A stretch of DNA of 64,000 nt from a virus (IMGVR_UViG_3300046007_003718:32001-96000), one strand, 5' to 3'; positions 8,436-30,137 are shown, numbered from the stretch's first letter. The notes: a model not told the origin generated them from the letters alone. A program made the numbers and translations.

Positions 8436-9730
8436 CTAATTCCTTTCTATTTGTAATCTATAAAGATTCCTATAAGGACGATAAAGAACACTATCCCAAG
8501 GAAACATAAAAGCATAAACATAACTGCATCATGCAGGGCCTGCATATCAGTCCTTATCTTGCTTGCGCTTAACGTTCCAGATCATGATTAGTATCATGGC
8601 CAAGGGAACGAGTAGCCAAACGATATATTGACCAAGGAAATACATACACCTACTCTACCAAATATGCTCGCAGATTTCAAAGGGCTGGGACTCCTATCCG
8701 CAGACATACTTTGCGTTTTAGGGATATGGGGGGGTGCTTAATGGACAAAACATATAGGGGGTATATCTTTTGTCCACATATACATAGCAGAACAGTACCG
8801 TTTTCGGTACGGTCTTGCTACCGCTTTAAGGGAAAACTCTTGCGGCGGTACAAACACCCAGCCTAAGCATCTGTCGCTTGCGCCTTCATGCATAAACTCA
8901 AACTACGGAAAATTGCTTACAGATTTAAGAGGAGGGGGACTCCTAACTCAGATATGGGTACCCTTGATTTAAAAGGGATATGGGGGGAGGGGGGGGGTGG
9001 CCCCCTACACTATAGTCGGCCCCCTGTCAAGTCACACCTGTATGTCACAGTTAAGTGTAACTTACCTATTGGGATTCTCCCATGCCATAAGCACAAAGGG
9101 ATAAACGAGATACATAGCCAGAGTCACTACAGCAGAAGCATATCCCAGCATGACCATAGGCACACCAATGAGGGGCAGGGGCACCATGATGATGAGGCCA
9201 AGGACAAGTACCACAAACCCCCTTGCCACAATGGCATTGGCCCATCTCCTCCACGGGTGGAGCGTAGCCTTCCCTTCCCTGTATCCACGGCTAAACGCCT
9301 GTGTGAATGACTCCCTATGAGCCTGTACGGGCACGCTGTTTACATGAGCATGGGGAATACGCCCACTATTCACCACTTCTCCCCCACTATCCCCACCTGT
9401 GTTGGATGCATCGTTCTCCCCATAGCCAAGGGATATACGGCTGCCTTCCATCGTTGTGTAGTCCGGCTTTGTATGTGACACCTGTGTTGCACCTCCCCCT
9501 CTGTATCTTGTCTATATGTGACATATGCTTATTGGTATGTATATGGGCCGCCGAATGGGCTTCCCTGTAGAGGTGAGTTACACCCCAAAAGTATTTTTTT
9601 TAACCGCCGACGCGAGGGCATAGCCTCCCCCTTCCTGCCGTCCCCCGCATACTATCATATGTGTCAAGTGTATGCCCTCCTCGTTTGTACCGGGTGGGCT
9701 TCTATGGGCCACGGGCATTGGATGAATCCA

Positions 9731-10010
9731 TGAGAAGCGATCTACGGGCCGCGAATGGGGCTACCCATGCTAGGACATAGGCTAGGGGGTCGGAGGCCCG
9801 TGTAGGCCTTCCTGTGGCTTCCTGTGCATGGTCCCGTGGATGCCAGCCCCCGTGTCTGGTGGGCCAGCCTGTTCTGTATGGGTCATGGCCGTTGGATGAA
9901 TCGCTGAGAGGCTCTGTATGGGCCGCGCCTCGGGGTACCCATGCTAGACCCTTGCCCACCACCTCGGAGGCCGTCCTAGGCCCTCCTGTGGCCTCGGAGG
10001 CATGGTCCCC
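9731..10010. repeat. Two tandem copies (9731, 9905) of a ~105-bp dispersed non-coding element
   Basis: TGAGA.GC..T.TAYGGGCC.CG-N9-CCCATGCTAG...GGCC...GGCC; also at 12987 and 13958. Confidence 0.75.
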
Positions 10011-10016
10011 GGAACG

Positions 10017-10048
10017 ACAAAGGGCCACCCCGGAAGGTGGCCCTTGTC
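10017..10048 (-). terminator. Intrinsic terminator after helicase C-half
   Basis: aagggccacc-ccggaa-ggtggccctt hairpin. Confidence 0.7.
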
Positions 10049-10072
10049 TCCTGCCCGTTTATCCCGTGACCC

Positions 10073-11110
10073 CTAGAAGGCCGTCACCTCCTCCACCTCA
10101 TCCTCGGACAGCAGGCCCGCCTCCACGATGAAGGGCGAGACCCCGGTGATGTTGCGCCCGTAGACGGAGGTGCTGCTGACGAACAGAACGTCCTCGGCGC
10201 GGGTCATGGCGACGTATGCCATGCGGCGCTCCTCCTCAACGTCCTGCGGGGTCTTGGCGAGCGCGTGGGGCAGCAGGCCCTCGCTCATCCCGGCGATGAA
10301 CACGACCGGCCATTCCAGCCCCTTGGAGCGGTGGATGCTGAGGATGGTCACGGCGTCGTCCTCGTTCTCGCCCCGGAGGTCGGAGGCCTTGGCGGTCACG
10401 CTCTCCTGCTCCACGAACCATGCGACGAACGCCGCGAGGTCGTCCCCGAACTCGGCCCCGGAGAGGGCTACGTCCTCCACGATTGCGATGGAGCCGTCGC
10501 CGTTGGTCTCGGGGGTCTCGGTGTCCTCCTCGGCCTGATCGCGCAGCCATGCGGCCACCCCGGAGTCCTCAGCGATGCCGCGCACAATGTCAATCACGGG
10601 CACCTTGCCGACCATCTCACGGTACTTGCGAATGAGGGCGATGAAGGCGTCCATGTTGTCCTTCTGGCGACGGTTTATACGGGCGTCCTTAAGGCCAAAG
10701 AACGGGTCGTTCGGGCAGGCAGCGTAGGCCTGACGGGCGACACCGGCACCAAGGAACCGCGAGGGCGTGGACAGGGCCGTGGTCAGGGCCTCCTCGTCGG
10801 CGTTGCCGACGACCACGCGCAGGTAAGAGGTGATCGCCTGAGTCTGGTACCGCTTCCAAAACGACGGGGAACCGATGATGCGAAAGGTGAAGCCAGCGCG
10901 GGTAAACGCGCTTTCCAGCGGGCGGGTCTGACGGTTGGTACGGACCAGCACGGCGATGCTCGCGCCGGGGACACCGGCATCGCGCAGGGCCTTGATCTGG
11001 GTGGCGATGTTGTCGGCCTCCTCGCCCTCGTCGTTGTAGTGCGCGTAGTTGATGGGGTCCAGCCCGGTGGCCGGGATGATGAACTCAGGGATATCGGTGG
11101 TGGTGTCCAT
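10073..11110 (-). CDS. uvrD: UvrD/PcrA/Rep SF1 helicase, C-terminal half (2A/2B domains)
   Basis: AVLVRTNRQ, SIHRSKGLEW (motif V), EERRMAYVAMTRA (motif VI); own TAAGGAG RBS. Confidence 0.9.
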   Translation of the reverse strand: MDTTTDIPEFIIPATGLDPINYAHYNDEGEEADNIATQIKALRDAGVPGASIAVLVRTNRQTRPLESAFTRAGFTFRIIGSPSFWKRYQTQAITSYLRVVVGNADEEALTTALSTPSRFLGAGVARQAYAACPNDPFFGLKDARINRRQKDNMDAFIALIRKYREMVGKVPVIDIVRGIAEDSGVAAWLRDQAEEDTETPETNGDGSIAIVEDVALSGAEFGDDLAAFVAWFVEQESVTAKASDLRGENEDDAVTILSIHRSKGLEWPVVFIAGMSEGLLPHALAKTPQDVEEERRMAYVAMTRAEDVLFVSSTSVYGRNITGVSPFIVEAGLLSEDEVEEVTAF

Positions 11111-11135
11111 GTGGTCTCCTTAGTCGTGTAGAGGC

Positions 11136-11185
11136 ATCGTACAGGAAGGGCCGGGAGGATGCAAGCCCTCCCGGCCCCTCGTTTA
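11136..11185 (-). promoter_or_regulatory. Sigma70-type promoter overlapping a hairpin
   Basis: TTGCAT-N17-TACGAT; -35 sits in the loop of gggccgggagg/cctcccggccc; TAAACG upstream. Confidence 0.7.
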
Positions 11186-11191
11186 TCCGGG

Positions 11192-12271
11192 CTACCCGGC
11201 CAGCACCTCCACCGGGACGCCCTCAGCCTCGTCGTGGTCACGGTGCGGGGCGACCTCCTTGCCCAGCCGCTCCTTGTTGTGGGCGATGAGGCGGGCCGCA
11301 GCCTCCACGATGGGGCGACGGGAGCGGTAGTTGGTACCAAGGTTCACGACCGTCACCTCGCCCTTAGTCTGGGCGATGAACTCGGCAGGGACCGCGCCCC
11401 GGAACGAGTAGATGCTCTGGTCGTCGTCCCCGACCATCGTGAGGTTGGAGGTCTGCGATGCCAGCACCCGCATGAGGCCGAACTGCACCGGGTTGCAGTC
11501 CTGCGCCTCGTCCACGAACACCCACTTGACGCGGCCGATCACGGCCTCGCGCACCTTGTCGTCCTTGGCGGCAGCGAGACCCCGGATGCCCATGCATGAG
11601 AAGGTGACGCTAATCACGCCGCCCTGCCGACGCTTCCAGCCCCGGTCGCGGCCCTTACCCTGAACCGCCCAACCCTCGTCCAGCAGGCGCTCCATGATCT
11701 TGTAAACGGTGCCCACCACCGGGTCGGCATCGGGCAGGGAGAGGTACTGCTCGGCGGTGAGGTTCTGGTCCATGATCTTGGACACGGCCTTGGCGATCTT
11801 GCCAGCCTTGCGGGGCATGTCCACGCCGTACTCGGAGCCGCCCCACTCGCTGTCGTTGGCGAGGTTGTGGCCGAACGGGCAGTAGCGCGAGGGAGCCTCT
11901 ACGATGCCGCGCACCATGCCTGTCACCTGACTCGGGGACAGCAGGGAGCCGCCGTACTTGCCAGCGTTTATCCGCTTACCCTTCTGCTGGCGGTAGAACT
12001 TGTACCCCAGCGAGTGCAGGGTGCCAACGTGGGCCAGCCGCTCCACGACCTCATCACCGACAAGGGTGGCAAGGCGGGACTTCATCTCCTCGGCGGCAGC
12101 CGTGGTGAAGGTAGCCAGCACGATGCTCTCGGGGGCCTCGCCCTCGGAGATGAGGCGGGCGACACGGTGAACCAGCACGCGGGTCTTACCGGAACCAGCA
12201 CCAGCGTTAATGACCAGCGGCCCCTCGCCGTGGTCAATCGCCGTCTGCTGCTCGGGACTCATGGTAGCCAT
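11192..12271 (-). CDS. uvrD: UvrD/PcrA/Rep SF1 helicase, N-terminal half
   Basis: SPEQ (Q), AGAGSGKT (I), TFTTAAAEEM (Ia), GTLHSLG, DEAQD (II), GDDDQSIYSFRGA (III), NYRS. Start set at ATG 12271 after GAGGAGG. Confidence 0.9.
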   Translation of the reverse strand: MATMSPEQQTAIDHGEGPLVINAGAGSGKTRVLVHRVARLISEGEAPESIVLATFTTAAAEEMKSRLATLVGDEVVERLAHVGTLHSLGYKFYRQQKGKRINAGKYGGSLLSPSQVTGMVRGIVEAPSRYCPFGHNLANDSEWGGSEYGVDMPRKAGKIAKAVSKIMDQNLTAEQYLSLPDADPVVGTVYKIMERLLDEGWAVQGKGRDRGWKRRQGGVISVTFSCMGIRGLAAAKDDKVREAVIGRVKWVFVDEAQDCNPVQFGLMRVLASQTSNLTMVGDDDQSIYSFRGAVPAEFIAQTKGEVTVVNLGTNYRSRRPIVEAAARLIAHNKERLGKEVAPHRDHDEAEGVPVEVLAG

Positions 12272-12315
12272 GCTCTTTCCTCCTCGTTCGGCGGGGCCGT
12301 TCCCCGTGTTCACGC

Positions 12316-12356
12316 ATCGTACCACAGGTGGTTCTGAGATTGCAAGTCCTCGTTTA
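12316..12356 (-). promoter_or_regulatory. Early promoter, TAAACG class
   Basis: TAAACG-N5-TTGCAA-N18-TACGAT with TGn extension. Confidence 0.75.
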
Positions 12357-12399: not shown

Positions 12400-12960
12400 G
12401 TCTGAATCCACAAGTACCCCTTGTGCGTACTTGCTACAAAGTCGGTCCCGAGATTGTAAAGTCCCTGCTCCGAGCAGGCACTTTCACCAGAGCCGTTCTA
12501 CGGGCCTTGGAGGGATTCCCGAGGGTCGTTACACCTGAGACCTGTAAAGTCCCTGCTCGTAGCGACTTTCGGGGGTTGGCACGGAGGCCCGAGAATCGCC
12601 TGAGAGCGATTGTGGTGAGACTTTGTGCGAGATTGACACAAGCAAGTTGAGGTCGCTTGTGCGGATTCAGCACAATCTCAGTTGCTTGCACTCGCAAGGA
12701 CTCAGTTGCACTTGCAAGTACCTTGTAGCACTTTGTCACAAGAATCCCGTTAAAGCCGTTGGGTTTCTTGGGTATAAAAGCCTGAGATGTTGTTGGGATT
12801 CTTGTGCTGATTTCGCACAATGTTGTTGCAGTAGCAAGTACCTTGTTCAGTTTCGCACAAGGTCACGCTTGTAGGTATCCGCACAATGTAGTTGCAAGTG
12901 CAAGCACAGCGTTTACACGCGGTCCTCGGGGCCTTACACGATTGGGGAGAGAATGTCAAG
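12400..12960. repeat. Non-coding array of short degenerate repeats
   Basis: GCACAAT...GTTGC x3 (~12670, 12815, 12881); CAAGTACC(CC)TTGT x3; TGTAAAGTCCCTGCTC x2; no credible ORF. Confidence 0.65.
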
Positions 12961-12986
12961 GGCTACGGGCCTCAGATTTGACGCCC

Positions 12987-13092
12987 TGAGAGGCGATATA
13001 CGGGCCTCGGAGGGCCTACCCCATGCTAGGACATTCGGGAAGCATGGAAGGCCCGTGTGTGGCCTCCTGTGGCCTCCTAGGGGGTATCGGGG
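12987..13092. repeat. Third copy of the ~105-bp dispersed element
   Basis: tgagaggcgatatacgggcctcggagggcctaccccatgctaggac. Confidence 0.75.
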
Positions 13093-13885: not shown

Positions 13886-13957
13886 GCTCCCTGTTCGTTG
13901 GCTGCCAGAGCAGCGTATCACAGATTCCAGACGTAGGCCCGATTCGCTGTGAAGCCC

Positions 13958-14060
13958 TGAGAGGCGTTCTACGGGCCTCGGATGCCTTCCCCCATGCTAG
14001 ACCCTTCCCAGACCATGCGAGGCCCTTCTAGGCCCCTTAGAATCGCTCCTAGGCCCTACC
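13958..14060. repeat. Fourth copy of the ~105-bp dispersed element
   Basis: tgagaggcgttctacgggcctcggatgccttcccccatgctagacc. Confidence 0.75.
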
Positions 14061-14140: not shown

Positions 14141-14323
14141 CTAGTAGTCGTCCAGCACCTCGTCCAGAAGGTCGCGCAGGCGCTCCACCTCATCCCCGGT
14201 CATGGCGACCGACACCTGCGGGCCGTCCAGCGTGGGGAAGGCGTGGAGGGTGATGTTGGCATCCCCGTCGCCCTTGTCAGTCACGAACACCACGGGGCCG
14301 TGGTAGGTCTCAATGCTGCTCAT
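14141..14323 (-). CDS. Small hypothetical protein
   Basis: AGGAG RBS; TAAACGATG stop/start junction. Confidence 0.6.
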   Translation of the reverse strand: MSSIETYHGPVVFVTDKGDGDANITLHAFPTLDGPQVSVAMTGDEVERLRDLLDEVLDDY

Positions 14324-14326
14324 CGT

Positions 14327-14530
14327 TTACACGCTCCTGTTCTCGTTGTTGAGGTGATGCTTGCCGCCACACTTGGGGCAAGCCCGGACGAACGTGAGTC
14401 GCCCGGTGCTGTTCTCCCTGAGCCAGAGGGTGCCCTCCTTCTCGGGCTTGCCGACGTACATGCTCATCCCCCGCCCGGTGACGGTGTTGCCACCGGGGCA
14501 GGGAGCAGAGATGAATGAGGTGGCCCCCAT
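14327..14530 (-). CDS. Small Cys/His (Zn-ribbon-like) protein
   Basis: CPKCGGKHH; TAAACGATG junction. Confidence 0.55.
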   Translation of the reverse strand: MGATSFISAPCPGGNTVTGRGMSMYVGKPEKEGTLWLRENSTGRLTFVRACPKCGGKHHLNNENRSV

Positions 14531-14533
14531 CGT

Positions 14534-14836
14534 TTACACCCCCTTCTCGTCGTTGGGAAGGAACATGGCCTCGCGCTTGGCAGCCTTGGCGAACGACGAC
14601 CCGCTGATGGAGTACCTGCGGGGCCGGGACGGGGCGGCGATCAGAGCCGCGTGGAACTCGGTCGCCAGCGACTCGGCCTCGTAGGCGCTCGCCAGAGCAA
14701 CGTCGGCCTCCAACCCCTCGGGCAGAGCGTCGGCCTGCCGGTGGTACTCCTCGGCACGGGCTTCCAGCGCGTCCACGATGAACGCGGCCTCACCGATGCA
14801 GAGGTTACGGATGGAGACTCGGTACGGATTACCCAT
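14534..14836 (-). CDS. Hypothetical early protein
   Basis: Start reassigned to MGNPYRV after GAAAGGA RBS and promoter. Confidence 0.6.
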   Translation of the reverse strand: MGNPYRVSIRNLCIGEAAFIVDALEARAEEYHRQADALPEGLEADVALASAYEAESLATEFHAALIAAPSRPRRYSISGSSFAKAAKREAMFLPNDEKGV

Positions 14837-14865
14837 GATGCTGTCCTTTCGGTTGGTGTTGGGGC

Positions 14866-14904
14866 ATTGTAGCACGCCCCTCAGACGGATGCCCTCCCCG
14901 TTTA
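14866..14904 (-). promoter_or_regulatory. Early promoter, TAAACG class
   Basis: TAAACG-N4-GGGCAT-N17-TACAAT; near-duplicate of 15345-15383. Confidence 0.65.
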
Positions 14905-14954
14905 TCCGGGGAGGGGAGGCAGGGCAGGGCGGTGGCCCGCCCTGCCCCTGTCGT

Positions 14955-15308
14955 TTAGACCCCCTGCTCGGTGGTCTCCTCGTCCTGCGGCCCCTCCTCG
15001 TACTCGCGGGCGGCAGCGAGCAGCACCTCGGCAATCTCGCGGGCCTGCTGGGCGGTGAACTTGGCGTGAACGTATCCCTTCTCCTGCCCCTCGGAGGTTG
15101 CCAGCGTCCCCAGCACCATGACCGTCACCTCACCGAACTTTCCGCCAGCGATCTGGTAGTCCTGCCGGTGAGTCGTGAGGGAGTCGTTTCGCTCATGGGT
15201 GAATGAGGTGCCGTCGTTGGTGACGTAGGTGTACGGGCCGACGCCCTCGCCCTGCACCGTGTAGGTGGTGTAGTCGTCGTTCTCGTAGTTGCTGATGTTG
15301 ATGCTCAC
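14955..15308 (-). CDS. Hypothetical early protein
   Basis: GTG after GAGGAG; acidic tail. Confidence 0.6.
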   Translation of the reverse strand: MSINISNYENDDYTTYTVQGEGVGPYTYVTNDGTSFTHERNDSLTTHRQDYQIAGGKFGEVTVMVLGTLATSEGQEKGYVHAKFTAQQAREIAEVLLAAAREYEEGPQDEETTEQGV

Positions 15309-15344
15309 GATGAAACTCCTCGGTTCAGTTGCTTGCTGAGGGGA

Positions 15345-15383
15345 AGTGTACCACACCCCTCGGACGGATGCCCTGCCCGTTTA
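15345..15383 (-). promoter_or_regulatory. Early promoter, TAAACG class
   Basis: TAAACG-N4-GGGCAT-N17-TACACT. Confidence 0.65.
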
Positions 15384-15441: not shown

Positions 15442-16203
15442 CTAGGCCCCGTGGGGAGCCGTCACCTTGGGCTTGCGGGTCTTGCGGGCGACCACCTGCA
15501 TACGCTCGCCGCAGCAGGGGCAGATCGGCGTGCCAGCCGCTTCCAGCCACTTGGCCGTCATGTTGAGGTTGTAAACGTCCTTGCCCTCACCGCTGGGGTC
15601 GCAGCCACGGGTGCCGTCCTCCTGCGGGGTGCAGCAGGCGACCTTCACCAGACGGGTGGCCTGCGGCTTGTGGACGACGTTCATGCCCTTGTGCGGGTAC
15701 TCGCCCAGCGACTCGCGCAGGCGGGCAGTCAGGGCCACGAAACGGTCCCCGGCGTAGGTGGCGGTGGGCTTGCCAGCGAGGCCGATGGTGCGAATCATCT
15801 CCACGAACGGACCCTTGTGGCCGTTCTTGTTGCCGTCAATGGCGTGGACAATCTCATGGGCGAGAACGTCCAGCACACCCGGCTCGCGCTCGTCGTTGCC
15901 CAGCGTGTCCTTGCGGCCCGTCTTGGGGCCGATAGCGTGGGCAAGGGCGGGCGACACGGTGATGTGCCGCACGTTGCCCTCGGGCGAGGAAGTCTCATGG
16001 TAGGCCATGCCGACCACGGAACCCTTGCCGCTCTTACCCAGCCACGCCCGCTTGTGCGAAAAGGACAGGTGCGGGGCGACGGTGTAGCCCTCGGGCATCG
16101 GGAAGCCAGCCTCGGCCAGAATGGTGAGCAGGCCGTCAGTTGCGGCGGCGATGTAGGACTCAGGCGTGTCGTGGACCTGAGCGTGAATCGGTGAGTAACC
16201 CAT
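15442..16203 (-). CDS. SprT-like zinc metalloprotease with C-terminal Zn ribbon
   Basis: VLAHEIVH...GHKGPF...IGL; C-terminal CPCC; AAGGAG RBS; TTGACA promoter upstream. Confidence 0.75.
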   Translation of the reverse strand: MGYSPIHAQVHDTPESYIAAATDGLLTILAEAGFPMPEGYTVAPHLSFSHKRAWLGKSGKGSVVGMAYHETSSPEGNVRHITVSPALAHAIGPKTGRKDTLGNDEREPGVLDVLAHEIVHAIDGNKNGHKGPFVEMIRTIGLAGKPTATYAGDRFVALTARLRESLGEYPHKGMNVVHKPQATRLVKVACCTPQEDGTRGCDPSGEGKDVYNLNMTAKWLEAAGTPICPCCGERMQVVARKTRKPKVTAPHGA

Positions 16204-16373
16204 GATGCTGTCTCCTTGGTTGGTTGCTGTACGGGGATTAAACCAGATGGTGTGAGCCGTGTCAAGTGCCCGGTGTGGGCGGCTCGTTTATCCCTGCCCC
16301 GGCAGTATGACAGATGCTCCGGGGGAATACAAGCCCTCCCCGAATCCTCGCTCGGGGAGGGCGTTTAGATGCC

Positions 16374-16613
16374 CTAGAGGTCGGCCTCGTACTCATCGGC
16401 CAGCCGGTCCAGCGTGTAGGCCTGATACTCGGCCTCCCGGTGGGTCTCCATCCACTCACGCTCGCGCTTGGGGTCGTAAGCGAACCCATCCTCATCCCCG
16501 AATCCTGCGGCGATATGCAAGGCATCAGCGGCCTTCTCACGCAGAGCCTCGGCTCCTGCCCTCAGAACCTCCACCCTCTCCTGCTGAATCATCCGGCTTG
16601 TTGCAACACCCAT
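16374..16613 (-). CDS. Hypothetical early protein
   Basis: Start MGVATS after GGGAG; promoter at 16641-16681. Confidence 0.6.
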   Translation of the reverse strand: MGVATSRMIQQERVEVLRAGAEALREKAADALHIAAGFGDEDGFAYDPKREREWMETHREAEYQAYTLDRLADEYEADL

Positions 16614-16678
16614 CGTTGTCTCCCTGTTCGTTGTTGGGGGACCGTAGCACAGATTGGGGAGAGGGCACAAGGCCCCGT

Positions 16679-16864
16679 TTATCCTTCCACCCACGACCAC
16701 ACCTCGGGGTCGGTAGGATGCTGCTCGGGGAGGGTGGCAAGGCGCGGCCATGCAGTCATGCCTTCCTGCTCCATGATGGTGAAGGCCGCGTTTACACGGG
16801 CGGTGATGTTGGTGAACTGCCCCTCACGGAGCCACTCCATGTACCGCTGCTCATCGCTCAACAT
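16679..16864 (-). CDS. Small hypothetical protein
   Basis: MLSDEQRYMEW; operon context. Confidence 0.5.
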   Translation of the reverse strand: MLSDEQRYMEWLREGQFTNITARVNAAFTIMEQEGMTAWPRLATLPEQHPTDPEVWSWVEG

Positions 16865-17023: not shown

Positions 17024-17191
17024 TTACCATGACACTTCCTCCTTGTGCTTACGCTTGCGCGTGTAACGGATGTTTACACGCTCGGGCGCATCCTTGCGCG
17101 AGCGCCTGACCTCAATGCGAACCCGCTGGCGCATACGACGCGCACGCTTAGGCTCAACGAACTTCTCCTCGTCCCGCTCTTGCTCGTACAT
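17024..17191 (-). CDS. 55-aa basic protein with YTRKRKHK motif (ArfA-like tail)
   Basis: Hand translation MYEQERDEEKFVEPKRARRMRQRVRIEVRRSRKDAPERVNIRYTRKRKHKEEVSW; TAGGAGA RBS. Confidence 0.6.
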   Translation of the reverse strand: MYEQERDEEKFVEPKRARRMRQRVRIEVRRSRKDAPERVNIRYTRKRKHKEEVSW

Positions 17192-17254
17192 GGTATCTCC
17201 TAATAGTTATCTATCTAACTAATGAATATCTATCTAACTGCTTGCTGCTCAGAC

Positions 17255-17293
17255 AGCATACCATCTCAGATGAGAGATGCAAGGCCTCGTTTA
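17255..17293 (-). promoter_or_regulatory. Early promoter, TAAACG class
   Basis: TAAACG-N5-TTGCAT-N16-TATGCT. Confidence 0.7.
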
Positions 17294-17620
17294 TTCGCCC
17301 TCAATCTCCATACCAATCGTGAATCCTAGGCTAGCACCAGACTTGGTGTTGTAAACGCCGTCAGGCACCCATCCGCTAACATCGTAGAACGACTCCAACA
17401 CAGTCCCCTTCACGGATTCTAGCGAACGGTGAAGGGTAAACCACACTTCACTCTCATGCACCTTGCGCTCAACTAGAAGCCACGGACGCTCCTGCTGCCC
17501 AGCAACCTCCAACCGAACATTGTCTGGGTCAATGTGGAAATCCTGATCGTAGTCCTCTAGGATTTCCACAATCACCTTATTGGTGATCTGAACATCGTCA
17601 GGGATGCAACTAACACTCAT
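17291..17620 (-). CDS. Hypothetical protein
   Basis: GGAGG RBS; TAAACGATG junction. Confidence 0.6.
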   Translation of the reverse strand: MSVSCIPDDVQITNKVIVEILEDYDQDFHIDPDNVRLEVAGQQERPWLLVERKVHESEVWFTLHRSLESVKGTVLESFYDVSGWVPDGVYNTKSGASLGFTIGMEIEGE

Positions 17621-17623
17621 CGT

Positions 17624-17899
17624 TTAATCCTCCTGTATGATTTCGGCAATATAACCTGCATAGCAGTTAAACTTCTCCTCATCGTTGGCTGATGAAGGAA
17701 CCTCAACATAACCATCGTGAACCCAAACATCATGCCCATCTATGCAACCGGGCTGACCGTCAAAGAGCATACGGCAGACCTGATGTGAAGTGCTGCCGTC
17801 GTCGTAGAACTGCCACCAATCATCAGAGCCAAAGCGGAGGCGATGAAGGGTCACAGTCTCCTGCTCGTACTTCTGGGGAGGCATGATTAAACGCCCCAC
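17624..17899 (-). CDS. Hypothetical protein
   Basis: Operon context; start may be MPPQKY. Confidence 0.55.
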   Translation of the reverse strand: MGRLIMPPQKYEQETVTLHRLRFGSDDWWQFYDDGSTSHQVCRMLFDGQPGCIDGHDVWVHDGYVEVPSSANDEEKFNCYAGYIAEIIQED

Positions 17900-18264
17900 T
17901 CAGAAAGGTTGCCATTGGCACGCTCAGGGACTCGGACACGGTACTCGGGGTAATAGACCTCACCGTTGGTGGTGTCCACGATAGCAACCACTACCCACAC
18001 ACCCTGTGCGTCAGCGTCCACCACAGAGTCGTAGATAGAGGTGTCGGCGTACTCGGCAGCCTCGTCCCACTCATCCTTGCCGTCGTAGAGAACATCGAAG
18101 TCCCCGCCCTTGACGACAGCGATGAAGCGGTACAGGTTGCCGTCAGAATCCCAGAATCCCGACTGCGGGGAGCCATGACGGGGAGTTCCCCACGCACTCT
18201 GAATCCTGTCCATCATCTCCTCAGCCTGCTCGCGCTGCTCAATCTCTGCATCGGTAATGCTCAT
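17887..18264 (-). CDS. Acidic hypothetical protein
   Basis: Start MSITDAE after AAAGGAG. Confidence 0.6.
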   Translation of the reverse strand: MSITDAEIEQREQAEEMMDRIQSAWGTPRHGSPQSGFWDSDGNLYRFIAVVKGGDFDVLYDGKDEWDEAAEYADTSIYDSVVDADAQGVWVVVAIVDTTNGEVYYPEYRVRVPERANGNLSEWGV

Positions 18265-18296
18265 CAGAATCTCCTTTAGTTTGTTGCTGCTTAGAC

Positions 18297-18335
18297 AGCA
18301 TAGCACCTCAGACCTAAGATGCAAGTGCCCGTTTA
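18297..18335 (-). promoter_or_regulatory. Early promoter, TAAACG class
   Basis: TAAACG-N5-TTGCAT-N16-TATGCT. Confidence 0.7.
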
Positions 18336-18556: not shown

Positions 18557-18892
18557 TTATCCCTCCCTCCACTCAGGCCCCTCGTCCAGAATGTCCATAA
18601 CCTGAACATCTCCGGGCTGGCAATCAATAAGGTCATGCCAAGCCCAACGGTCGGGGCAATCATCTGAGGCATCGGTTGTGATGCGAAGGGTGATGGTGTA
18701 AACGCGCATCTCTCTCACGTTCAGAACGTAAGCAGGAAACCTCTCACCACAGTCGTAGCACTTGTAGCCACAGACCAGAACCTCACGGTCATGCTCATCA
18801 ATCTCAACATCATGCCCAGACTGCGAGGTGACGTTCTCAGACTGACAGTTTACACAACACTCGGGATTATCAACAAAGTTTACGGCACTCAT
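18557..18892 (-). CDS. Zn-ribbon protein
   Basis: CVNC...CYDC pairs. Confidence 0.55.
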   Translation of the reverse strand: MSAVNFVDNPECCVNCQSENVTSQSGHDVEIDEHDREVLVCGYKCYDCGERFPAYVLNVREMRVYTITLRITTDASDDCPDRWAWHDLIDCQPGDVQVMDILDEGPEWREG

Positions 18893-18895
18893 CGT

Positions 18896-19075
18896 TTAAC
18901 CATCCTGTCGGGGAGTGATGTACCCAGCCTCAATCAGAGCCGCAGCCATGCGACCGTAAGAGCCTTGCAGGCTCCATGCCATACCTGTATCCACAAGGTA
19001 CTGAAAGAGGTCAATGATACCCTCCTCATCCAACTCACCCTGCTCATACTCCATAATCGAACTAACGTAATCCAT
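18896..19075 (-). CDS. 59-aa small phage protein
   Basis: Hand translation [53 protein letters not shown]...; AAGGAG RBS; below ORF-track cutoff. Confidence 0.65.
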
Positions 19076-19193
19076 TTCTATCTCCTTACCTAGTCAGAGA
19101 AAACGTAAGACCGGCCACTACCCACACGGCCAGAACGCCAACTGCGATTACAATAAAAGTTTCCATCTTGCCCTCCTCGTTGCTTGCCTTGTA

Positions 19194-19233
19194 AGCATAG
19201 GGAATATATCTCACTAATGCAACTATTCGTTTA
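19194..19233 (-). promoter_or_regulatory. Early promoter, TAAACG class
   Basis: TAAACG-N5-TTGCAT-N17-TATGCT. Confidence 0.75.
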
Positions 19234-19455: not shown

Positions 19456-19812
19456 TTAGATGCGCTCCTCGCTCATTGTGTCCTGTCGGATGTTCTCCAT
19501 CTCCTGTTCGTTGAGCCATGCGTAAGCCTCGGCACGACTCTCCTCGTCAGCCGCAGCCTGTCGCAGAATCTCGTTCCACTCCTCGGGGTCGGTGACATAG
19601 GACTCAGCATCAATCTCGTCCCGACGACGCCGATACTCCTCCTCAATCTGAGCCTCAATGATGCCCTGTCGGTACTCAACCCAGAGAGTCAGAGCCTCAT
19701 CAAGAATGACGAACTGCTCAATGGTGAGGTCTCCGTTTACAGTCAGGTCGTCCAGACGGTGATAGAGAGCCGTAGCCTTGTCCTGCATAATCATAACATC
19801 GTCCTGCATCAT
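19456..19812 (-). CDS. Acidic hypothetical protein
   Basis: AAAGGAG RBS; promoter directly upstream. Confidence 0.6.
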   Translation of the reverse strand: MMQDDVMIMQDKATALYHRLDDLTVNGDLTIEQFVILDEALTLWVEYRQGIIEAQIEEEYRRRRDEIDAESYVTDPEEWNEILRQAAADEESRAEAYAWLNEQEMENIRQDTMSEERI

Positions 19813-19842
19813 TGGTCTATCTCCTTTCGTGCTTGCTCGTCA

Positions 19843-19882
19843 AGCATACAGGTTAATAGGAAAAAGTGCAACCCCTCGTTTA
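19843..19882 (-). promoter_or_regulatory. Early promoter, TAAACG class
   Basis: TAAACG-N5-TTGCAC-N17-TATGCT. Confidence 0.75.
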
Positions 19883-21007: not shown

Positions 21008-21331
21008 TCAATAGTCCTCATCGTCGTCCTCGTCCATCTCAAAGTCGAACTCCACGATGAGGCGAGCGACACGACCATCGTTGTCGTACTCAACGAACAC
21101 CGGATAAACGCCGTCACCCCAGCCGGTGCTGGTGCAGACCGCATCAGAAAAACGACCCTGAGTAGAGAACTGCCCCGCCCGCTCGTCGCTCAGGCTAGCC
21201 GCACAAGCGCGACCATATGGGGAATCCTCACCGTACTCGCCGTCAAGGACGTAGCAGGGGTCCACAACGAACACCTGACCAGAATCAACGGGAACCTGTC
21301 CCACCTTCACGCGCATACCAGACCTACTCAT
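21008..21331 (-). CDS. DUF4241-like protein
   Basis: VDSGQVFVVDPCY...TGWGDGVYPV motifs; GGAGG RBS. Confidence 0.65.
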   Translation of the reverse strand: MSRSGMRVKVGQVPVDSGQVFVVDPCYVLDGEYGEDSPYGRACAASLSDERAGQFSTQGRFSDAVCTSTGWGDGVYPVFVEYDNDGRVARLIVEFDFEMDEDDDEDY

Positions 21332-21359
21332 TACTGCCTCCTTTGTTGCTTGCTCGTCA

Positions 21360-21400
21360 AGTGTAGCAGATCAAGTCTGCCGATTGCAACTACTCGTTTA
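21360..21400 (-). promoter_or_regulatory. Early promoter, TAAACG class
   Basis: TAAACG-N5-TTGCAA-N18-TACACT. Confidence 0.75.
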
Positions 21401-21849: not shown

Positions 21850-21850
21850 A

Positions 21851-22279
21851 TTATGCCTTCCTTTCGTAAGAATCGTACTTTTCGTTTAGAATCGGTCGAA
21901 ACTTCTGCTCAACAAGCGCCTGAGCAGTTTCATACACTTCCTGAGCAAATGCGTTTGTCCACGCCCCGGTCATATCAAAAGAGTCAGGGAGATAAGTGTC
22001 GAACAACTCATCCACCAACTCGCAGGGAGAGGGCCAATAAACGCTGTCCACGTTCTTATCCCAATACTCCCATGCGATGTTAGCGAATACCTTGCCCACA
22101 TACTCTGCATTGTTATTGGAATAAATGACCACACCATAGATGCTCCCATCGAAGGGGTCCACATACGGAGTAAAGGTGATGCCTGCATCGTACTCCACGG
22201 TCTCCTGAAAAGTCTCGCGGAAGTCTTGCAGCACAGCCTTGCTAACAGAACCATAGGACTCACACATTAGGCATCCCAC
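21851..22279 (-). CDS. Hypothetical protein
   Basis: Operon context; start may be MCESYG. Confidence 0.55.
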   Translation of the reverse strand: MGCLMCESYGSVSKAVLQDFRETFQETVEYDAGITFTPYVDPFDGSIYGVVIYSNNNAEYVGKVFANIAWEYWDKNVDSVYWPSPCELVDELFDTYLPDSFDMTGAWTNAFAQEVYETAQALVEQKFRPILNEKYDSYERKA

Positions 22280-22422
22280 CCACTCACGCGGGCCTGCTGC
22301 TTGGCCTTACGGCGCTGGGTCTTGCGACTCTGGATGCCATGCGTCTGAGAGTGCATGATAGCGAACCGCTGGCCGGTCGTGCTGGTGTCCTGCCGGAACT
22401 TCTTTCGCTGCTTGTTGGTCAC
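22267..22422 (-). CDS. Small basic protein
   Basis: AAAGGAG RBS; KQRKKFR...SRKTQRRKAKQQAR. Confidence 0.55.
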   Translation of the reverse strand: MTNKQRKKFRQDTSTTGQRFAIMHSQTHGIQSRKTQRRKAKQQARVSGWDA

Positions 22423-22450
22423 GATCATCTCCTTTGCTTGATGCTCTAGC

Positions 22451-22490
22451 ATCATACAGTATGGAATCCAAAAGTGCAACTGCTCGTTTA
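22451..22490 (-). promoter_or_regulatory. Early promoter, TAAACG class
   Basis: TAAACG-N5-TTGCAC-N17-TATGAT. Confidence 0.75.
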
Positions 22491-22706: not shown

Positions 22707-23174
22707 CTATCCGTAGATGAGCCGACCGAACACAGCAATCTGAACCAGAACATCGGCGCAGTCTGCGTCAAGATAGCCGGGGTCGTTCTCACGAAGGGCA
22801 CGCTGAATGTAGCCGGTGATGCTGGTGTTAGCAGGAGGCTCCTCCTGAACAAAGGTCTGGAAAGCCTTAGTCAGATTCTCAGCATTGACCGTATAAATAG
22901 GGGATTCGGTCTCAGCCACATCCTCATTCTCGCGGAGAGTAACCTCGTACCACAGTTCATCAAGAATGTCTCCACTCTCAGGCTTAGTTACCTTAATGTT
23001 TAGAGCGTCAGCCCAATAGAAGGAAGCGCCATAGGAACCATCAAAAGCCCCGACAAGCACAGCGTCCACCATATGCGCGGTAATAGGAAGGGTCGTCGTG
23101 ACCACACCAACCACCGTGGACTTGTCGTACTTCTCCTCTAGAGCCTTAAGACTCTCCGATACATAGTCACTCAT
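22707..23174 (-). CDS. Phage hypothetical protein
   Basis: C-terminal DADCADVLVQIAVFGRLIYG; start after GAAAGGAG. Confidence 0.65.
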   Translation of the reverse strand: MSDYVSESLKALEEKYDKSTVVGVVTTTLPITAHMVDAVLVGAFDGSYGASFYWADALNIKVTKPESGDILDELWYEVTLRENEDVAETESPIYTVNAENLTKAFQTFVQEEPPANTSITGYIQRALRENDPGYLDADCADVLVQIAVFGRLIYG

Positions 23175-23203
23175 ATTGCTCCTTTCGTTTTCCATCTGAA
23201 TAG

Positions 23204-23243
23204 ATGGTATCAGATCAACCAACCAACTGCAACTACTCGTTTA
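23204..23243 (-). promoter_or_regulatory. Early promoter, TAAACG class
   Basis: TAAACG-N5-TTGCAG-N17-TACCAT. Confidence 0.7.
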
Positions 23244-23477: not shown

Positions 23478-23502
23478 AAAAGCCTCCTTTAATGATTTAT
23501 AC

Positions 23503-23596
23503 TACCCCTAGCGGGAGTCGAACCCGCGATAAACTTCCGCGTAAGCCAAGCGTCCTTGTGCGTTACCGGCGTCGTTGCCGCTAGACCATTAGGGGC
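23503..23596 (-). ncRNA. tRNA-like RNA with a long non-canonical anticodon arm
   Basis: Acceptor stem GCCCCUA/UAGGGGU, D-arm GUC-UAGCGGCAAC-GAC, T-arm GCGGG-UUCGACU-CCCGC; central arm ends in CAAG-GACG-CUUG; no encoded CCA. Confidence 0.75.
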
Positions 23597-23602
23597 ATGA
23601 GT

Positions 23603-25622: not shown

Positions 25623-26156
25623 TCACTTAACAGGCAAGGTCCGAAGGTGACGGACCCTATCTCTTGCCCAACGCCTACGAGGCTCGGTAAACGGGTAGTT
25701 GTTCTCAATGCAACCATCCAGCATCTCCAAAACCCTGCTCTCGTCAGACCCCGTTTGTACCGCGAAGTCGTGAATCATCCCGCGAGCGATCTTAAGGTCG
25801 TGAAGGTTCTTTTCCCTGAGAAGTTTACGGTCGTCAGTAGCCTTGTTCTTACGAGCCTGCCGAATAAGACGCTTGGCCTCATCCTTTACCTCACCAACAA
25901 GGTGCTTGTTTGCACCAAGGAAGGTCTCAATGCAGTTGGAACCGGCGATGAGGTCGCCCCCATTGTCCACATCAGAAAGGTGGAACTCATACCGGATTCC
26001 ACCGTGACCACACACCTCGCAGGTAGTGTAGTTACCGGGACCGCGATCAACAGCCCCGACAAGACGAAGCCGGTGAGCATCCCTCTGCTCCTCGGGAACA
26101 CGAATGTCCTCAAAGAACTTCTGGATACCACCGGCCTGTCGCTTGCTGAACTCCAT
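25623..26156 (-). CDS. Zn-finger protein
   Basis: CEVCGH..IRYEFH...GSNCI; own promoter TTGATT-N17-TATGCT. Confidence 0.65.
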   Translation of the reverse strand: MEFSKRQAGGIQKFFEDIRVPEEQRDAHRLRLVGAVDRGPGNYTTCEVCGHGGIRYEFHLSDVDNGGDLIAGSNCIETFLGANKHLVGEVKDEAKRLIRQARKNKATDDRKLLREKNLHDLKIARGMIHDFAVQTGSDESRVLEMLDGCIENNYPFTEPRRRWARDRVRHLRTLPVK

Positions 26157-26218
26157 TAGAATCCCCTCTCGCTTGCTTACGAAGGAAGCATAGCATACCC
26201 ATTAGGGGGAATCAAGCC

Positions 26219-26985: not shown

Positions 26986-27174
26986 TTAAGTCAAGTCATC
27001 CTCGTCATCTTCATCTATAACTATAAATGTCCTTATGAACATCAATAACATTCCTGAGATTATAGCCCATACCCCGGCGTTCCAATCTCCTGTAAGCAAA
27101 TAAAAGGTGCCGAAAAAGAAGCAGACGAGAGCAACGAATAAACCCGCTGCTCTAACCAAGTCAGTCATTAACAA
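26986..27174 (-). CDS. Two-TM membrane protein
   Basis: Hydrophobic helices, acidic tail. Confidence 0.55.
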   Translation of the reverse strand: MLMTDLVRAAGLFVALVCFFFGTFYLLTGDWNAGVWAIISGMLLMFIRTFIVIDEDDEDDLT

Positions 27175-27457: not shown

Positions 27458-28286
27458 AACGAGTACCCCTACGCTCTCCCTCAATGTTTACACGCTCATC
27501 GTTCTGTAGAACATAACGCACGCTAGTCCACTCAGTAGTCGAAAGACCGAAGTGCGAGATGAGTTCTGCCTTAGACGTTGGCCCATTGTCTGAGATAAAC
27601 TGAACAATAACATTCATCACATCAGTATCAACCGTAGGCGTCTTGTCCTCAACGATAACCTCATAAGTGCGACCGGGGACAGTATAGTTTGTCCCTCGCT
27701 TGGTGCCGTTCTTAACTACCTTGCCTGTCTCAACCGCAGCGTTGATTACCTCGGAATAGATCGAAGCCGGGATAAGGTCGCCAATATGCTTCTTAGTAAC
27801 AGGCTGGTCTGACTCCTCTACAAAGAGGATAAACTCGTCGCGTACAGCAGCAATCCTCTGAGCCTTCTCGTCGCTCTGCTTGCGCCCCGGCTTGTACCGA
27901 AGGACGCGACCATACTCATCAACGGGGGCACCGCGAGCAATAGCAGCCTGATCGGCTCGCTCCTGACACTTGGCAATCCACTTTCCCAAGTAATCCTCAC
28001 GATGGTTAATAGCCTCGTCCTCGGGCAGAGAGCGAAGCAACTCCATACGGTTATCATGCACCTCGTTTAGATCCTCAAAAGGAAGCGTAATGCGATCATT
28101 GTCTGATGTAAGAATAGTTGCTTCCTTATCCTGTGCCGCAAGCACAAGTGCATATCGAAAGCCACCCTCGCTATTCCAAAAACTAATCGTGTCACCGCGA
28201 ACGGGCGCAACCTTGGTCTGCATATCAACCTCCTTTGACTTAACATTTCTCTTAGTAAGTTTGTTACTCACTCGTTTCTTACCCAT
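27444..28286 (-). CDS. Putative DNA-binding protein with tandem winged-helix-like repeats
   Basis: Two C-terminal repeats ending GTKRGTNY and GERRGTRY. Confidence 0.55.
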   Translation of the reverse strand: MGKKRVSNKLTKRNVKSKEVDMQTKVAPVRGDTISFWNSEGGFRYALVLAAQDKEATILTSDNDRITLPFEDLNEVHDNRMELLRSLPEDEAINHREDYLGKWIAKCQERADQAAIARGAPVDEYGRVLRYKPGRKQSDEKAQRIAAVRDEFILFVEESDQPVTKKHIGDLIPASIYSEVINAAVETGKVVKNGTKRGTNYTVPGRTYEVIVEDKTPTVDTDVMNVIVQFISDNGPTSKAELISHFGLSTTEWTSVRYVLQNDERVNIEGERRGTRYVRA

Positions 28287-28297
28287 AAGTTACCTAC

Positions 28298-28522
28298 CTA
28301 ACTCTCTACTGTCAAGGCCTCATCAAAGATCGCATTTAGACTATCTGCGATCACATCCCTCTCTTTAGTCAGACAAGGGGAACATTGTGCCTCGGGGTTA
28401 TACCGTGAGAGGCGAGCATCGCACCGGGTACAATGCCGCACCTCCGCAGGCTTGTCGTCCACGAAGTCAAATGGGACCATATCGCCCATAGATTTCGCAG
28501 GAATAATCTCATCAAATCGCAT
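28298..28522 (-). CDS. Zn-finger protein
   Basis: CTRCDARLSRYNPEAQCSPC; GGAGG RBS. Confidence 0.6.
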   Translation of the reverse strand: MRFDEIIPAKSMGDMVPFDFVDDKPAEVRHCTRCDARLSRYNPEAQCSPCLTKERDVIADSLNAIFDEALTVES

Positions 28523-28532
28523 AACTTACCTC

Positions 28533-28790
28533 CTAGAACGAGTCCGGGTATTCTGCTGAAAGGATAGTCAGCATAAAGTTAAGAGAGTGAAACGTAGAGT
28601 CGGCAGGAGTCCATGCCTTCTCAAAGTTGTCATACACACGCCACTCCTGCTTGCGGCCACGCTTACCAATGCCGCGAATCATAAAGCGCCCATCCTTGGA
28701 CTCATATACACCGGACTCAACACGGTGAAGGGACTTAGTGCGGGGACGGCCCCGGCCACGCTTCTCCTCAGTAACAGTTGCACTAGACAT
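28533..28790 (-). CDS. AT-hook-containing protein
   Basis: KRGRGRPRTK; AAAGGAG RBS. Confidence 0.6.
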   Translation of the reverse strand: MSSATVTEEKRGRGRPRTKSLHRVESGVYESKDGRFMIRGIGKRGRKQEWRVYDNFEKAWTPADSTFHSLNFMLTILSAEYPDSF

Positions 28791-28939
28791 ATGAATCTCC
28801 TTTAGGTCGTATTGACGATATAACAGTAACTTAGCATAGGTACTATAGGAGATGCAAGTGTAACTATAATCGCATTTATACGGAGATATTCGCGGGGCGT
28901 TTAAACGCTGAGTCCACGGGGGCGTACAAACGCTGACCT

Positions 28940-29365
28940 CTACTTCTCGTCAAGAGGAGGAGCGTCTGGAATGGAGCGGATAAACTCCTCAACGATAGCC
29001 TCCTCTTGCTCCCCGATTTTCTTATCAACGCGCTTCTTAAACTCGTCAATCTGCGCCTTGTATTGATCGGGGAATAGAGCCTGCATTTGTTCGATAGAAA
29101 CAAGGACGGTTGCCATCGCGCTTGCAAATTCAGAAAGAGAAGAAACAATCGCCCTTCCATTTGGAGTGTCTACGATCTCTGCCAACTCGTCGGGTGGAAT
29201 TTTAGCCATTTTAATATCCACTTCAGAACCGATGGCGCTAAGAAGGTTGTGAATGCCCTCCATAATCACGATTGCCATCTCGCTGATGTTCATCTCTTTT
29301 GCCGTTTCCCAATTGGCATTTATAATCATCTTTAACTTGTCGGGCACTTTATCATCTTTAGGCAT
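28940..29365 (-). CDS. Hypothetical helical protein
   Basis: 141-aa ORF. Confidence 0.6.
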   Translation of the reverse strand: MPKDDKVPDKLKMIINANWETAKEMNISEMAIVIMEGIHNLLSAIGSEVDIKMAKIPPDELAEIVDTPNGRAIVSSLSEFASAMATVLVSIEQMQALFPDQYKAQIDEFKKRVDKKIGEQEEAIVEEFIRSIPDAPPLDEK

Positions 29366-29589
29366 AATAATTATCTAACTAACTTTCTAATAGAATTTAA
29401 TAGGATTTAACTATCTAACTAACTTAAATTAGTCCCATCTTACGAAATGGGGATGTGCATCCTACAGGGCACCAACCATCCATCTCTACATATTCACCGT
29501 GGGGGCAAATTAGGTGAAAGTCGAAAGGGTCATTGCCTTCCATCTCCCAATCATCTGGTAGCAAATCTTCTAGAGTCTCCCAAAGACCA

Positions 29590-29874
29590 TCATACTTGCT
29601 CATCATCACCCTCTCGTAAATAAATTAATAAACTATCTATCTGACTATTTACTGCTGAAAGATTCTCCATCATAGTTTTCTTAATCTTATCAGATTTTGA
29701 TTCATGAAACAACTGCATTAGTTCATCTCTTTCCAAGAATAGATTAACTAACTTATTTGAAAGATACAACTTTTGTTCAGCGATTTCTTTTTGTTCAAGT
29801 GCTTCTGCCATCTTTTTCCAAAGATGCTCTGCTTGATAAAAACGCCACGGGTCTTTTTCTTTATCTTCACTCAC
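29590..29874 (-). CDS. Hypothetical coiled-coil protein
   Basis: Overlapping operon context. Confidence 0.55.
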   Translation of the reverse strand: MSEDKEKDPWRFYQAEHLWKKMAEALEQKEIAEQKLYLSNKLVNLFLERDELMQLFHESKSDKIKKTMMENLSAVNSQIDSLLIYLREGDDEQV

Positions 29875-30137
29875 TACTTAAATTTTCGTTCTTTTCGTTA
29901 GAAAGAGCCTTTTCCTTAGCAGACCGCGATGCTAAACGGAATAAATCACCATCTGCATTTTTTGAAGCCCATATTGAGAGTCCACGCTTTTTTGTCTTTG
30001 CAATAACATGCAATTTATCTCCAGAGATGTGGCATTTGCCCGGAGTGTGCGTTTCGGGGTCTTGCCAAACTTTCTTTTCTTTCCAGCCTTTAATTTCTTC
30101 AGGCGGGTTGCGACCTTCTCCCAATGGCTCCATTTGT

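Follow-up and report, generated by a model that had tools for sequence, protein, structure and literature searches.

The hexamer TAAACG recurs at high density in one GC-rich block of a phage genome, where it is kept at gene boundaries and, on both strands, inside coding sequences. The word was followed through a 64,000-nucleotide stretch of viral DNA (IMGVR_UViG_3300046007_003718:32001-96000; hereafter the window), which comprises bases 32001-96000 of a 110,395-bp IMG/VR virus record (G000). The retention of the word within genes is the mark of selection, or of a very specific process, acting on double-stranded DNA. Tentatively, and with a probability put somewhat short of even, the copies form a site array for a sequence-specific double-stranded DNA-binding regulator of the block, for which a small AT-hook protein encoded at the block's upstream end is the candidate reader. 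The block, with gene calls made by a heuristic of the analysis (ribosome-binding site plus GC-frame pattern), is as follows.

9100-29940, minus strand: GC-rich block of about 53 small genes, mostly acidic in product and of no known families; 44-66% GC; 51 copies of TAAACG

An exact search of both strands finds 66 copies of TAAACG in the window, with 51 in positions 9100-29940 (19 on the plus strand and 32 on the minus strand), 12 in 29941-64000 and 3 in 1-9099, in good agreement with an earlier, sequence-only reading that had counted by eye about 50 copies in 9-30 kb against roughly a dozen in 30-64 kb. Dinucleotide shuffles of the whole window give 23 ± 5 copies, and none of 100 shuffles reaches 66. 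Within the block, Markov models of order 1, 2 and 3 predict 5.5, 7.0 and 16.8 copies, respectively, against the 51 observed, and order-2 expectations taken locally over 2 kb and summed across the block amount to 5.9. Among the hexamers of the block TAAACG ranks first, with z 16.6 at order 2 and z 8.3 at order 3. The exact k-mer counts against a Markov background that the same reading had proposed thus uphold the enrichment at orders 1-3 and in local models, and the prospect that it might vanish on correction for composition is rejected by shuffles and Markov models alike.

The word is also exact. The tetramer TAAA is followed by CG in 51 of 134 cases (38%) within the block, compared to 12 of 436 (2.8%) in 30-64 kb, and none of the 18 one-mismatch variants of TAAACG exceeds 2.6-fold in the block, most lying near 1. 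Flanking preferences comprise a G at -3 (35 of 51 copies), the avoidance of C at -2 and a purine-rich -1, a pattern displayed alike by plus- and minus-strand copies and by those of a relative, G001. The extended word may accordingly be written G-[T/G/A]-[A/G/C]-TAAACG on both strands, its information being limited to about nine positions with no further informative column out to ±40. An extracytoplasmic function sigma-factor -35 element, or a second promoter element at fixed distance, was dropped for want of any such column within ±40. A hairpin-loop model, in which the G at -3 and a C at -4 would pair with the CG end, was rejected as well, the outer positions showing complementarity no greater than shuffled controls in both genomes. 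The coefficient of variation of the spacing between copies is 0.78 in G000 and 1.03 in G001, and the case for even spacing or for one site per gene is weak (17 empty gene units against 22.8 expected; P = 0.014). Both orientations interleave along the block with no switch point in strand skew. Outside the block, an inverted pair, TAAACGTCGTTTA, occupies window positions 2893-2905 within the gene of a giant multi-domain protein.

The 51 copies of the block fall into 12 that are intergenic, 11 whose TAA is the stop codon of a minus-strand gene, 10 that are sense intragenic and 18 that are antisense, one of which (17888) overlaps a stop. The enrichment is therefore not confined to promoters, and the second outcome that would have refuted the sequence-only reading does not obtain, as 27 of the 51 copies lie inside open reading frames; its statement that copies occur within GC-rich reading frames in both orientations holds for the following positions.

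11965, 16789, 18515, 19734, 20767, 21822, 21883, 23238, 26355, 28064: intragenic sense copies (10)
9102, 9292, 10903, 11703, 15572, 17352, 18699, 20215, 20446, 21105, 22038, 22558, 24120, 24847, 25243, 25688, 29933: intragenic antisense copies (17)

When synonymous codons are permuted within each of the 53 genes, sense copies number 10 against 2.7 ± 1.4 expected and antisense copies 17 against 3.9 ± 1.7, with neither count reached in any of 2000 shuffles. Among all 4096 hexamers TAAACG ranks first in this test (merged z 8.0; the next 4.3). The intragenic copies are read in differing phases (Val-Tyr, Phe, Val-Asn and Leu-Asn-Glu contexts) and have no -35/-10 pair downstream. A paralogous protein motif was rejected as their origin, the proteins that hold the sites being unrelated.

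Further support comes from relatives of this phage. The closest, G001 (129,640 bp), has a portal protein 96% identical to that of G000 and a matching GC-rich block at 74-94 kb, which holds 40 copies of TAAACG against 5.6 expected, with ATAAAC and TAAACA also enriched. The two blocks are collinear at 68-88% DNA identity, apart from indels and one relocated gene (25638-26169 in G000, at 82.8 kb in G001). Where the blocks can be aligned, 18 of 29 G000 sites are kept in G001 compared to 31% for all hexamers (P = 5e-4). The intragenic sites alone are kept in 10 of 15 cases (P = 0.004), so that the conservation in relatives suggested earlier as a check was indeed found above background. The synonymous test, applied to orthologous coding segments of G001, returns 5 sense copies against 1.4 and 13 antisense copies against 3.9. 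Some two thirds of the sites in each genome are lineage-specific or unalignable, about ten being private sites in aligned DNA and many others falling where no alignment can be made; the density of the word is thus kept while its positions turn over. These comparisons concern two motif-bearing genomes that are mutually related, and their counts are not independent. Because the intragenic copies on both strands resist codon usage and the sites are conserved, recognition of double-stranded DNA, i.e. a protein-binding site, is indicated.

In two more distant relatives, G002 and G003, whose portals are 86-87% identical, the block is shorter, at 44-53% GC, has few promoters and the junction AAGGAGAnnGACTGATG instead, and shows no enrichment of TAAACG. 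In G003 the homologous block (approximately 17-30.5 kb; L027, L028) is tightly packed and inverted with respect to the rest of the genome, and three of its promoters bear TTTACA 9-11 nt upstream of the -35. The GC-rich cultured relatives Skog, Pinkcreek and E3 hold only 2-6 copies of TAAACG per approximately 150 kb, and inheritance of the word from GC-rich actinophage ancestors was rejected on that ground. Searches of viral and metagenome contigs with the UvrD-like helicase of the block returned generic helicases and no further motif-rich locus, the helicase profile being too generic.

A further 23 of 51 copies (the 11 that overlap stops and the 12 intergenic ones) stand at gene boundaries, most conspicuously in a repeated cassette of the form [stop] TAAACG - N5 - TTGCAn - N16-18 - TAtgcT - leader (A)GCAAGCAAC - AAAGGAG - ATG. 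The presence of copies upstream of -35 boxes, asserted from the sequence alone, is real: the exact pattern TAAACG-N5-TTGCA has 8 matches, on the coding strand, compared to 0 for a control pattern, and about six further cassettes retain TAAACG with a drifted -35 (GGGCAT, TTGTGC) or an inserted hairpin. In these promoters, which are of the sigma70 type, the word occupies -46 to -41, 5 bp upstream of the -35, with its centre at about -43.5 and its AAA run at -45 to -43. Terminator hairpins follow some of the boxes. Where the upstream gene stops at TAG the box is still present a few bases downstream, and because it persists there it must be more than a stop codon. Four junctions lack a promoter and take the form of a Shine-Dalgarno sequence, N3-5 and TAAACGATG; these are the minus-strand stop/start junctions at 14324, 14531, 17621 and 18893 that had been picked out beforehand, and all four are genuine. 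A search of IMG/VR with the promoter pattern gave 11 single matches at chance level and no enrichment, and a literature search on TAAACG in phage promoters gave nothing relevant. The cassettes and junctions are listed below.

23172-23243, minus strand: promoter cassette, TAAACG-N5-TTGCAG-N17-TACCAT, leader, AAAGGAG, ATG
22420-22490, minus strand: promoter cassette, TAAACG-N5-TTGCAC-N17-TATGAT; the TAA is the stop of gene 22697-22488
21329-21400, minus strand: promoter cassette, TAAACG-N5-TTGCAA-N18-TACACT; leader GAGCAAGCAAC-AAAGGAGG; the TAA is the stop of gene 21589-21398
19810-19882, minus strand: promoter cassette, TAAACG-N5-TTGCAC-N17-TATGCT; the TAA is the stop of gene 20251-19880
19150-19233, minus strand: promoter cassette, TAAACG-N5-TTGCAT-N17-TATGCT; the upstream gene stops at TAG 9 nt before, and the TAA is not a stop
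18262-18335, minus strand: promoter cassette, TAAACG-N5-TTGCAT-N16-TATGCT; the TAA is the stop of gene 18557-18333; repeat family D11
17189-17293, minus strand: promoter cassette, TAAACG-N5-TTGCAT-N16-TATGCT; the TAA is the stop of gene 17620-17291; repeat family D11
16611-16681, minus strand: promoter-like cassette with a weaker -35, TAAACG-N5-TTGTGC...TACGGT
16201-16367, minus strand: double-box cassette, TAAACG (16362), terminator hairpin, TAAACG (16285), TTGACA-N17-TTTAAT promoter, gene 16203-15442
15306-15383, minus strand: GC-rich promoter cassette, TAAACG-N4-GGGCAT-N17-TACACT; repeat family D5
14834-14957, minus strand: double-box cassette, stop TAAACG (14952), hairpin, TAAACG (14899), N4-GGGCAT-N17-TACAAT promoter
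12269-12356, minus strand: promoter cassette of the N-terminal half of the UvrD-like helicase, TAAACG-N5-TTGCAA-N18-TACGAT
11108-11185, minus strand: 81-bp spacer between the two UvrD-like helicase halves, TAG, TAAACG, hairpin (TTGCAT in the loop), TACGAT, ribosome-binding site, ATG
14321-14329, minus strand: promoter-less junction TAAACGATG, stop of 14530-14327 and start of 14323-14141; repeat family D13
14528-14536, minus strand: promoter-less stop/start junction TAAACGATG
17618-17626, minus strand: promoter-less stop/start junction TAAACGATG
18890-18898, minus strand: promoter-less stop/start junction TAAACGATG

A candidate for the protein that reads this word is encoded within the block itself, with a promoter of its own.

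28533-28790, minus strand: candidate binder, a basic protein of 85 residues with an invariant AT-hook, GRGRPRT, then three predicted beta strands and a helix
28850-28940, minus strand: promoter of the candidate gene, TTGCAT...TATGCT, with a 19-bp unit in two direct copies upstream

The candidate has the G-R-P core with basic flanks by which an AT-hook is recognised, and both the GRGRPRT sequence and the beta segment that follows are invariant in 14 homologs of 59-73% identity. Its predicted model (pLDDT 72.7) features a disordered N-terminus, strands at residues 28-30, 36-40 and 50-54 and a helix at 70-80. Its neighbours in a protein language model are the clusters of the Tn916- and lambda-type integrase arm-binding domains (PF02920, PF09003; score 0.93-0.94), which serve as a lead only. 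The gene occurs in G000 and G001 and is absent from G002 and G003, though its neighbours are present there. The 19-bp unit upstream of its promoter, TCAGCGTTT[G/A][T/A]ACGCCCC, holds the word in inverted orientation, and the second copy in G000 contains the sole perfect palindrome, CGTTTAAACG (28898-28907). The promoter of the G001 ortholog is likewise preceded by two such units. Only G001 was found to carry the candidate when IMG/VR was searched, and no longer or fused forms were found, which is weak evidence. Among 51 block proteins no helix-turn-helix or integrase family was found, in a genome record estimated to be about 70% complete.

From these features we infer the steps that would lead from a word under selection to one bound by the AT-hook protein and, in turn, to the control of transcription. 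The AT-hook would occupy the minor groove at the TAAA tetrad while the beta-sheet domain would read the flanking G and the CG, an arrangement for which an asymmetric 9-bp word would suit a monomer with two contacts. An AT-hook fits this word because a short run of A/T is what it requires, and in the GC-rich block TAAA is seldom found. Bound at a promoter, the protein would have its centre at about -43.5, a position from which regulators make contact with sigma region 4 or the alpha C-terminal domain, and the intragenic copies may raise local occupancy or act as roadblocks, as the stoperators of cluster A mycobacteriophages do. Since the protein is encoded in the block and a doubled operator precedes its own promoter, the regulation would lean to a timed shut-off or autoregulation of the block and not to first-round activation. 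Of the proposal in the sequence-only reading that TAAACG binds a phage or host protein coating early DNA, recognition of the double helix is thus favoured by the retention of intragenic copies on both strands, by conservation and by the phage-encoded candidate, whereas a role in translocation lacks the orientation polarity it would need.

Several observations weigh against the proposed regulator and its candidate reader. Searches of Pfam with the candidate returned no match even at E <= 10 (PF02920, PF09003 and PF00847 included), nor did a sequence search of the PDB, and an exhaustive remote search with profiles and hidden Markov models gave only WD40-blade look-alikes, probably by chance. A structure search reached a best Z of 4.6, with an AP2 tandem domain at Z 3.5 (root-mean-square deviation 3.0 over 54 residues). 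The match between the distribution of the candidate and that of the motif compares two genomes with two. Promoters of a first-firing block cannot depend on a protein encoded in that block, and host RNA polymerase or a host factor may act there instead. Several G001 promoters carry TAAACA, and the promoter element may thus be looser (TAAACR) than the intragenic word. Finally, the copies inside genes take both orientations, unlike the orientation-dependent stoperators (PMC9283540).

The point about first-firing promoters leads to an account resting on host machinery only, which is unlikely though it retains appreciable weight: TAAACG would act as an UP-like proximal subsite contacted by the alpha C-terminal domain, or as the site of a host factor, joined to a TAA stop, and its intragenic copies would be functionless. 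First-round promoters must function with host proteins alone, and the fixed position at -46 to -41 with its AAA run at -45 to -43, together with the 23 of 51 copies at gene boundaries, would follow naturally; behind some hairpins the opposite strand reads CGTTTAT, a possible short T-tail of bidirectional terminators. Against this account stand the intragenic copies, which on both strands and in two genomes exceed synonymous shuffles three- to four-fold, are conserved above background and have no -35/-10 downstream, while the exact CG end and the unenriched one-mismatch variants misfit a degenerate A-tract element. Rather less probable is a recombination signal of mobile regulatory cassettes resembling the PeSLs of T4-type phages, with the word at the edges of cassettes that shuffle genes and the intragenic copies as scars or crossover points. 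The block is indeed a hyperplastic array of small family-less genes in which promoters, leaders and terminators recur as cassettes. G000 and G001 differ by a 900-bp indel that has a 76-nt direct repeat on either side, and by the relocated gene (25638-26169 in G000, at 82.8 kb in G001). In 9 of 40 cases a homology breakpoint is found no more than 20 nt from a site, against 3.9 expected (P = 0.014); inside open reading frames the figures are 4 of 15 against 1.0. That breakpoint test may be inflated, as BLAST segments tend to stop at conserved islands, and a word of six to nine bases alone cannot drive homologous exchange. Antisense intragenic copies form the most enriched class, for which absorbed cassette ends would require local inversions, and the old split of the UvrD-like helicase speaks against a recent cassette insertion.

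Were the word instead a site for some DNA transaction other than transcription, such as site-specific modification, a nick or a Chi-like hotspot of protection or recombination within the block, its intolerance of mismatches would resemble that of enzyme recognition sites, and its use of both strands, in a phage that encodes RecA, an exonuclease and a UvrD-like helicase, would be in keeping. This is improbable given that no gene for a methyltransferase, a nickase or DNA modification could be recognised in the window, that polarity of the Chi or KOPS kind needs an orientation bias with a switch point, which is not seen, and that the fixed 5-bp spacing to the -35 is left without reason. An artefact of composition, codon usage or shared ancestry is very hard to credit. 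A Markov model of order 4 does absorb the signal, TAAAC and AAACG being themselves enriched, and the counts from G000 and G001, being those of related genomes, are not independent. An artefact is rejected by models of order 1-3, by local 2-kb models and by shuffles of synonymous codons and of codon order; lineage-specific sites in both genomes and the paucity of copies in GC-rich cultured relatives (2-6 per approximately 150 kb) are further points against it.

The regulator array proposed here most resembles, in several respects, the stoperators of cluster A mycobacteriophages (L5 gp71, TipsytheTRex repressor; PMC9283540), in which a small phage protein, acting probably as a monomer that touches DNA with two of its parts, likewise reads many copies of one asymmetric word; the reader here would be the 85-residue candidate. 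Both arrays occur in phages of actinobacteria, and in both, copies are found at promoters and in short spaces by stops and starts (here 23 of 51). The stoperators are 13-14 bp long and genome-wide (PMC9283540), compared to a word of 6-9 bp restricted to a 21-kb block, and nearly all share one orientation to transcription, whereas 19 of the 51 copies here are template-side and the intragenic ones divide into 17 antisense and 10 sense. A third of the copies in the present array are antisense and half lie inside open reading frames, unlike the stoperators. Stoperators serve lysogenic immunity through a helix-turn-helix reader, while the present phage looks lytic and its candidate bears an AT-hook. 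The PeSL cassettes of T4-type phages (PMC2839356, PMC4122927) likewise place a strong sigma70-type promoter and a stem-loop between small, nonessential, family-less genes of a hyperplastic region in which relatives differ by insertions, deletions and replacements. A repeated promoter with a terminator stem-loop is found here at 11108-11185, 14834-14957 and 16201-16367 and in repeat families D5, D6 and D11. PeSLs are long homologous cassettes, intergenic only, and a short intragenic word on both strands is not described for them (PMC2839356, PMC4122927).

With its centre at about -43.5, its fixed spacing and its orientation, the word is also like the regulator sites that abut the -35. Such sites near -42 to -43.5 include those of Mu Mor and C, of lambda cI at PRM and of class II CRP. 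They are dyads, bound by dimers and at promoters only, whereas the present word is asymmetric with one perfect palindrome. UP elements are degenerate A/T tracts at -40 to -60 that are confined to promoters and contacted by the alpha C-terminal domain, and the word shares the position (-46 to -41) and AAA run of their proximal subsite. It departs from them in being exact with an invariant CG end, with 27 copies intragenic and half far from promoters. The polar motifs Chi, KOPS and SRS need a strand skew that switches at an origin, terminus or end, which this word does not show.

All recognisable genes of the window lie on the minus strand. They include those for DnaB, DnaG, a DnaE-type polymerase, RecA, RNase H and ThyX as well as a terminase, the portal, an exonuclease and the giant multi-domain protein. 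Identity of the portal to its counterparts in Gordonia phage Skog and in Bixzunavirus (cluster C) mycobacteriophages is 40-42%, and no DNA-level match to any cultured phage was found. The phage looks lytic and Bxz1-like; myoviruses of that kind package by headful, and a fixed leading end is not expected. The description of the block's genes as GC-rich is accurate for 10-16 kb, where GC reaches 66%, and is not uniformly so, as the value drops gradually to 44-50% at 24-30 kb; the genome outside 9-30 kb has 34-44%. We infer that the block is expressed early, because sigma70-type promoters precede nearly every gene or gene pair, almost all of its proteins are small, acidic and family-less, and its codons are GC-rich. 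The relatives carry a cluster of 11 tRNA genes (17.8-22.9 kb in G001, 5.9-10.6 kb in G002 and 83.3-88.0 kb in G003) whose anticodons read Asn, Gly-GGA, Arg-AGA, Val-GTA, Leu-TTG, Ile-ATA, Leu-TTA, Glu-GAA, Gln-CAA, Lys-AAA and Met; G000 has none, probably since the record is incomplete. As 9 of these 11 tRNAs serve A- or G-ending codons (e.g. AGA, ATA, TTA, AAA, GAA, CAA), they suggest a GC-rich host for an AT-rich phage, with the block written in a host-like code used before the phage tRNAs are available.

Several other elements of the block may be recorded. The UvrD/PcrA-like helicase (window 10073-12271, minus strand) is split by a clean break at about residue 294 of an intact 600-residue homolog, and each half is a separate gene with its own promoter. 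The split is present in all close homologs (70-77% identity) and in homologs of 35-38% identity, and is therefore old. The 76-nt repeated element is non-coding, with core CCCATGCTAG and GC-rich arms, and occurs in three to four copies (9723-9798, 12979-13054 and 13950-14025; also 12489-12520), two of which flank the 900-bp stretch missing in G001. An odd 96-nt tRNA-Cys-like gene (23502-23597, minus strand), found by ARAGORN, has anticodon ACA at position 39 and is conserved in G002 and G003; no known RNA family was found over the block by Rfam at gathering score. A protein of 253 residues (15442-16203, minus strand), 89% identical in G001, has a HEIVH zincin-like motif and matches phrog_6361, of unknown function. 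Among the acidic products are very basic small proteins of 55 residues (17024-17191, minus strand; net charge +9) and 51 residues (22267-22422, minus strand; +11), the latter also found in G003, and both could be nucleic-acid binders.

A single short word kept in coding sequence on both strands implies a DNA-level reader that constrains gene sequence, and to our knowledge few such intragenic arrays have been described in lytic phages. In the present case the word is exact, its territory is a defined stretch of 21 kb, there is a candidate reader, and two relatives lack both word and reader. The array is also relevant to the question of how a host-like GC-rich module is run by an AT-rich phage that has its own tRNAs for A/U-ending codons. 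A bolder proposal, rather improbable in our estimation, is that the word is an address label, a rare AT-tetrad mark on host-like GC-rich genes that are expressed first, read by the phage AT-hook protein. Such a mark would distinguish the block both from host DNA and from the remainder of the phage genome, so that it could, for example, be spared the shut-off or degradation of host DNA or be switched off as a unit; control over the whole block would be exerted through a word maintained on both strands of coding sequence. Should the AT-hook protein bind the word, the two would constitute a compact, portable module of promoter control and a new instance of stoperator-like, genome-scale regulation outside the temperate cluster A phages.

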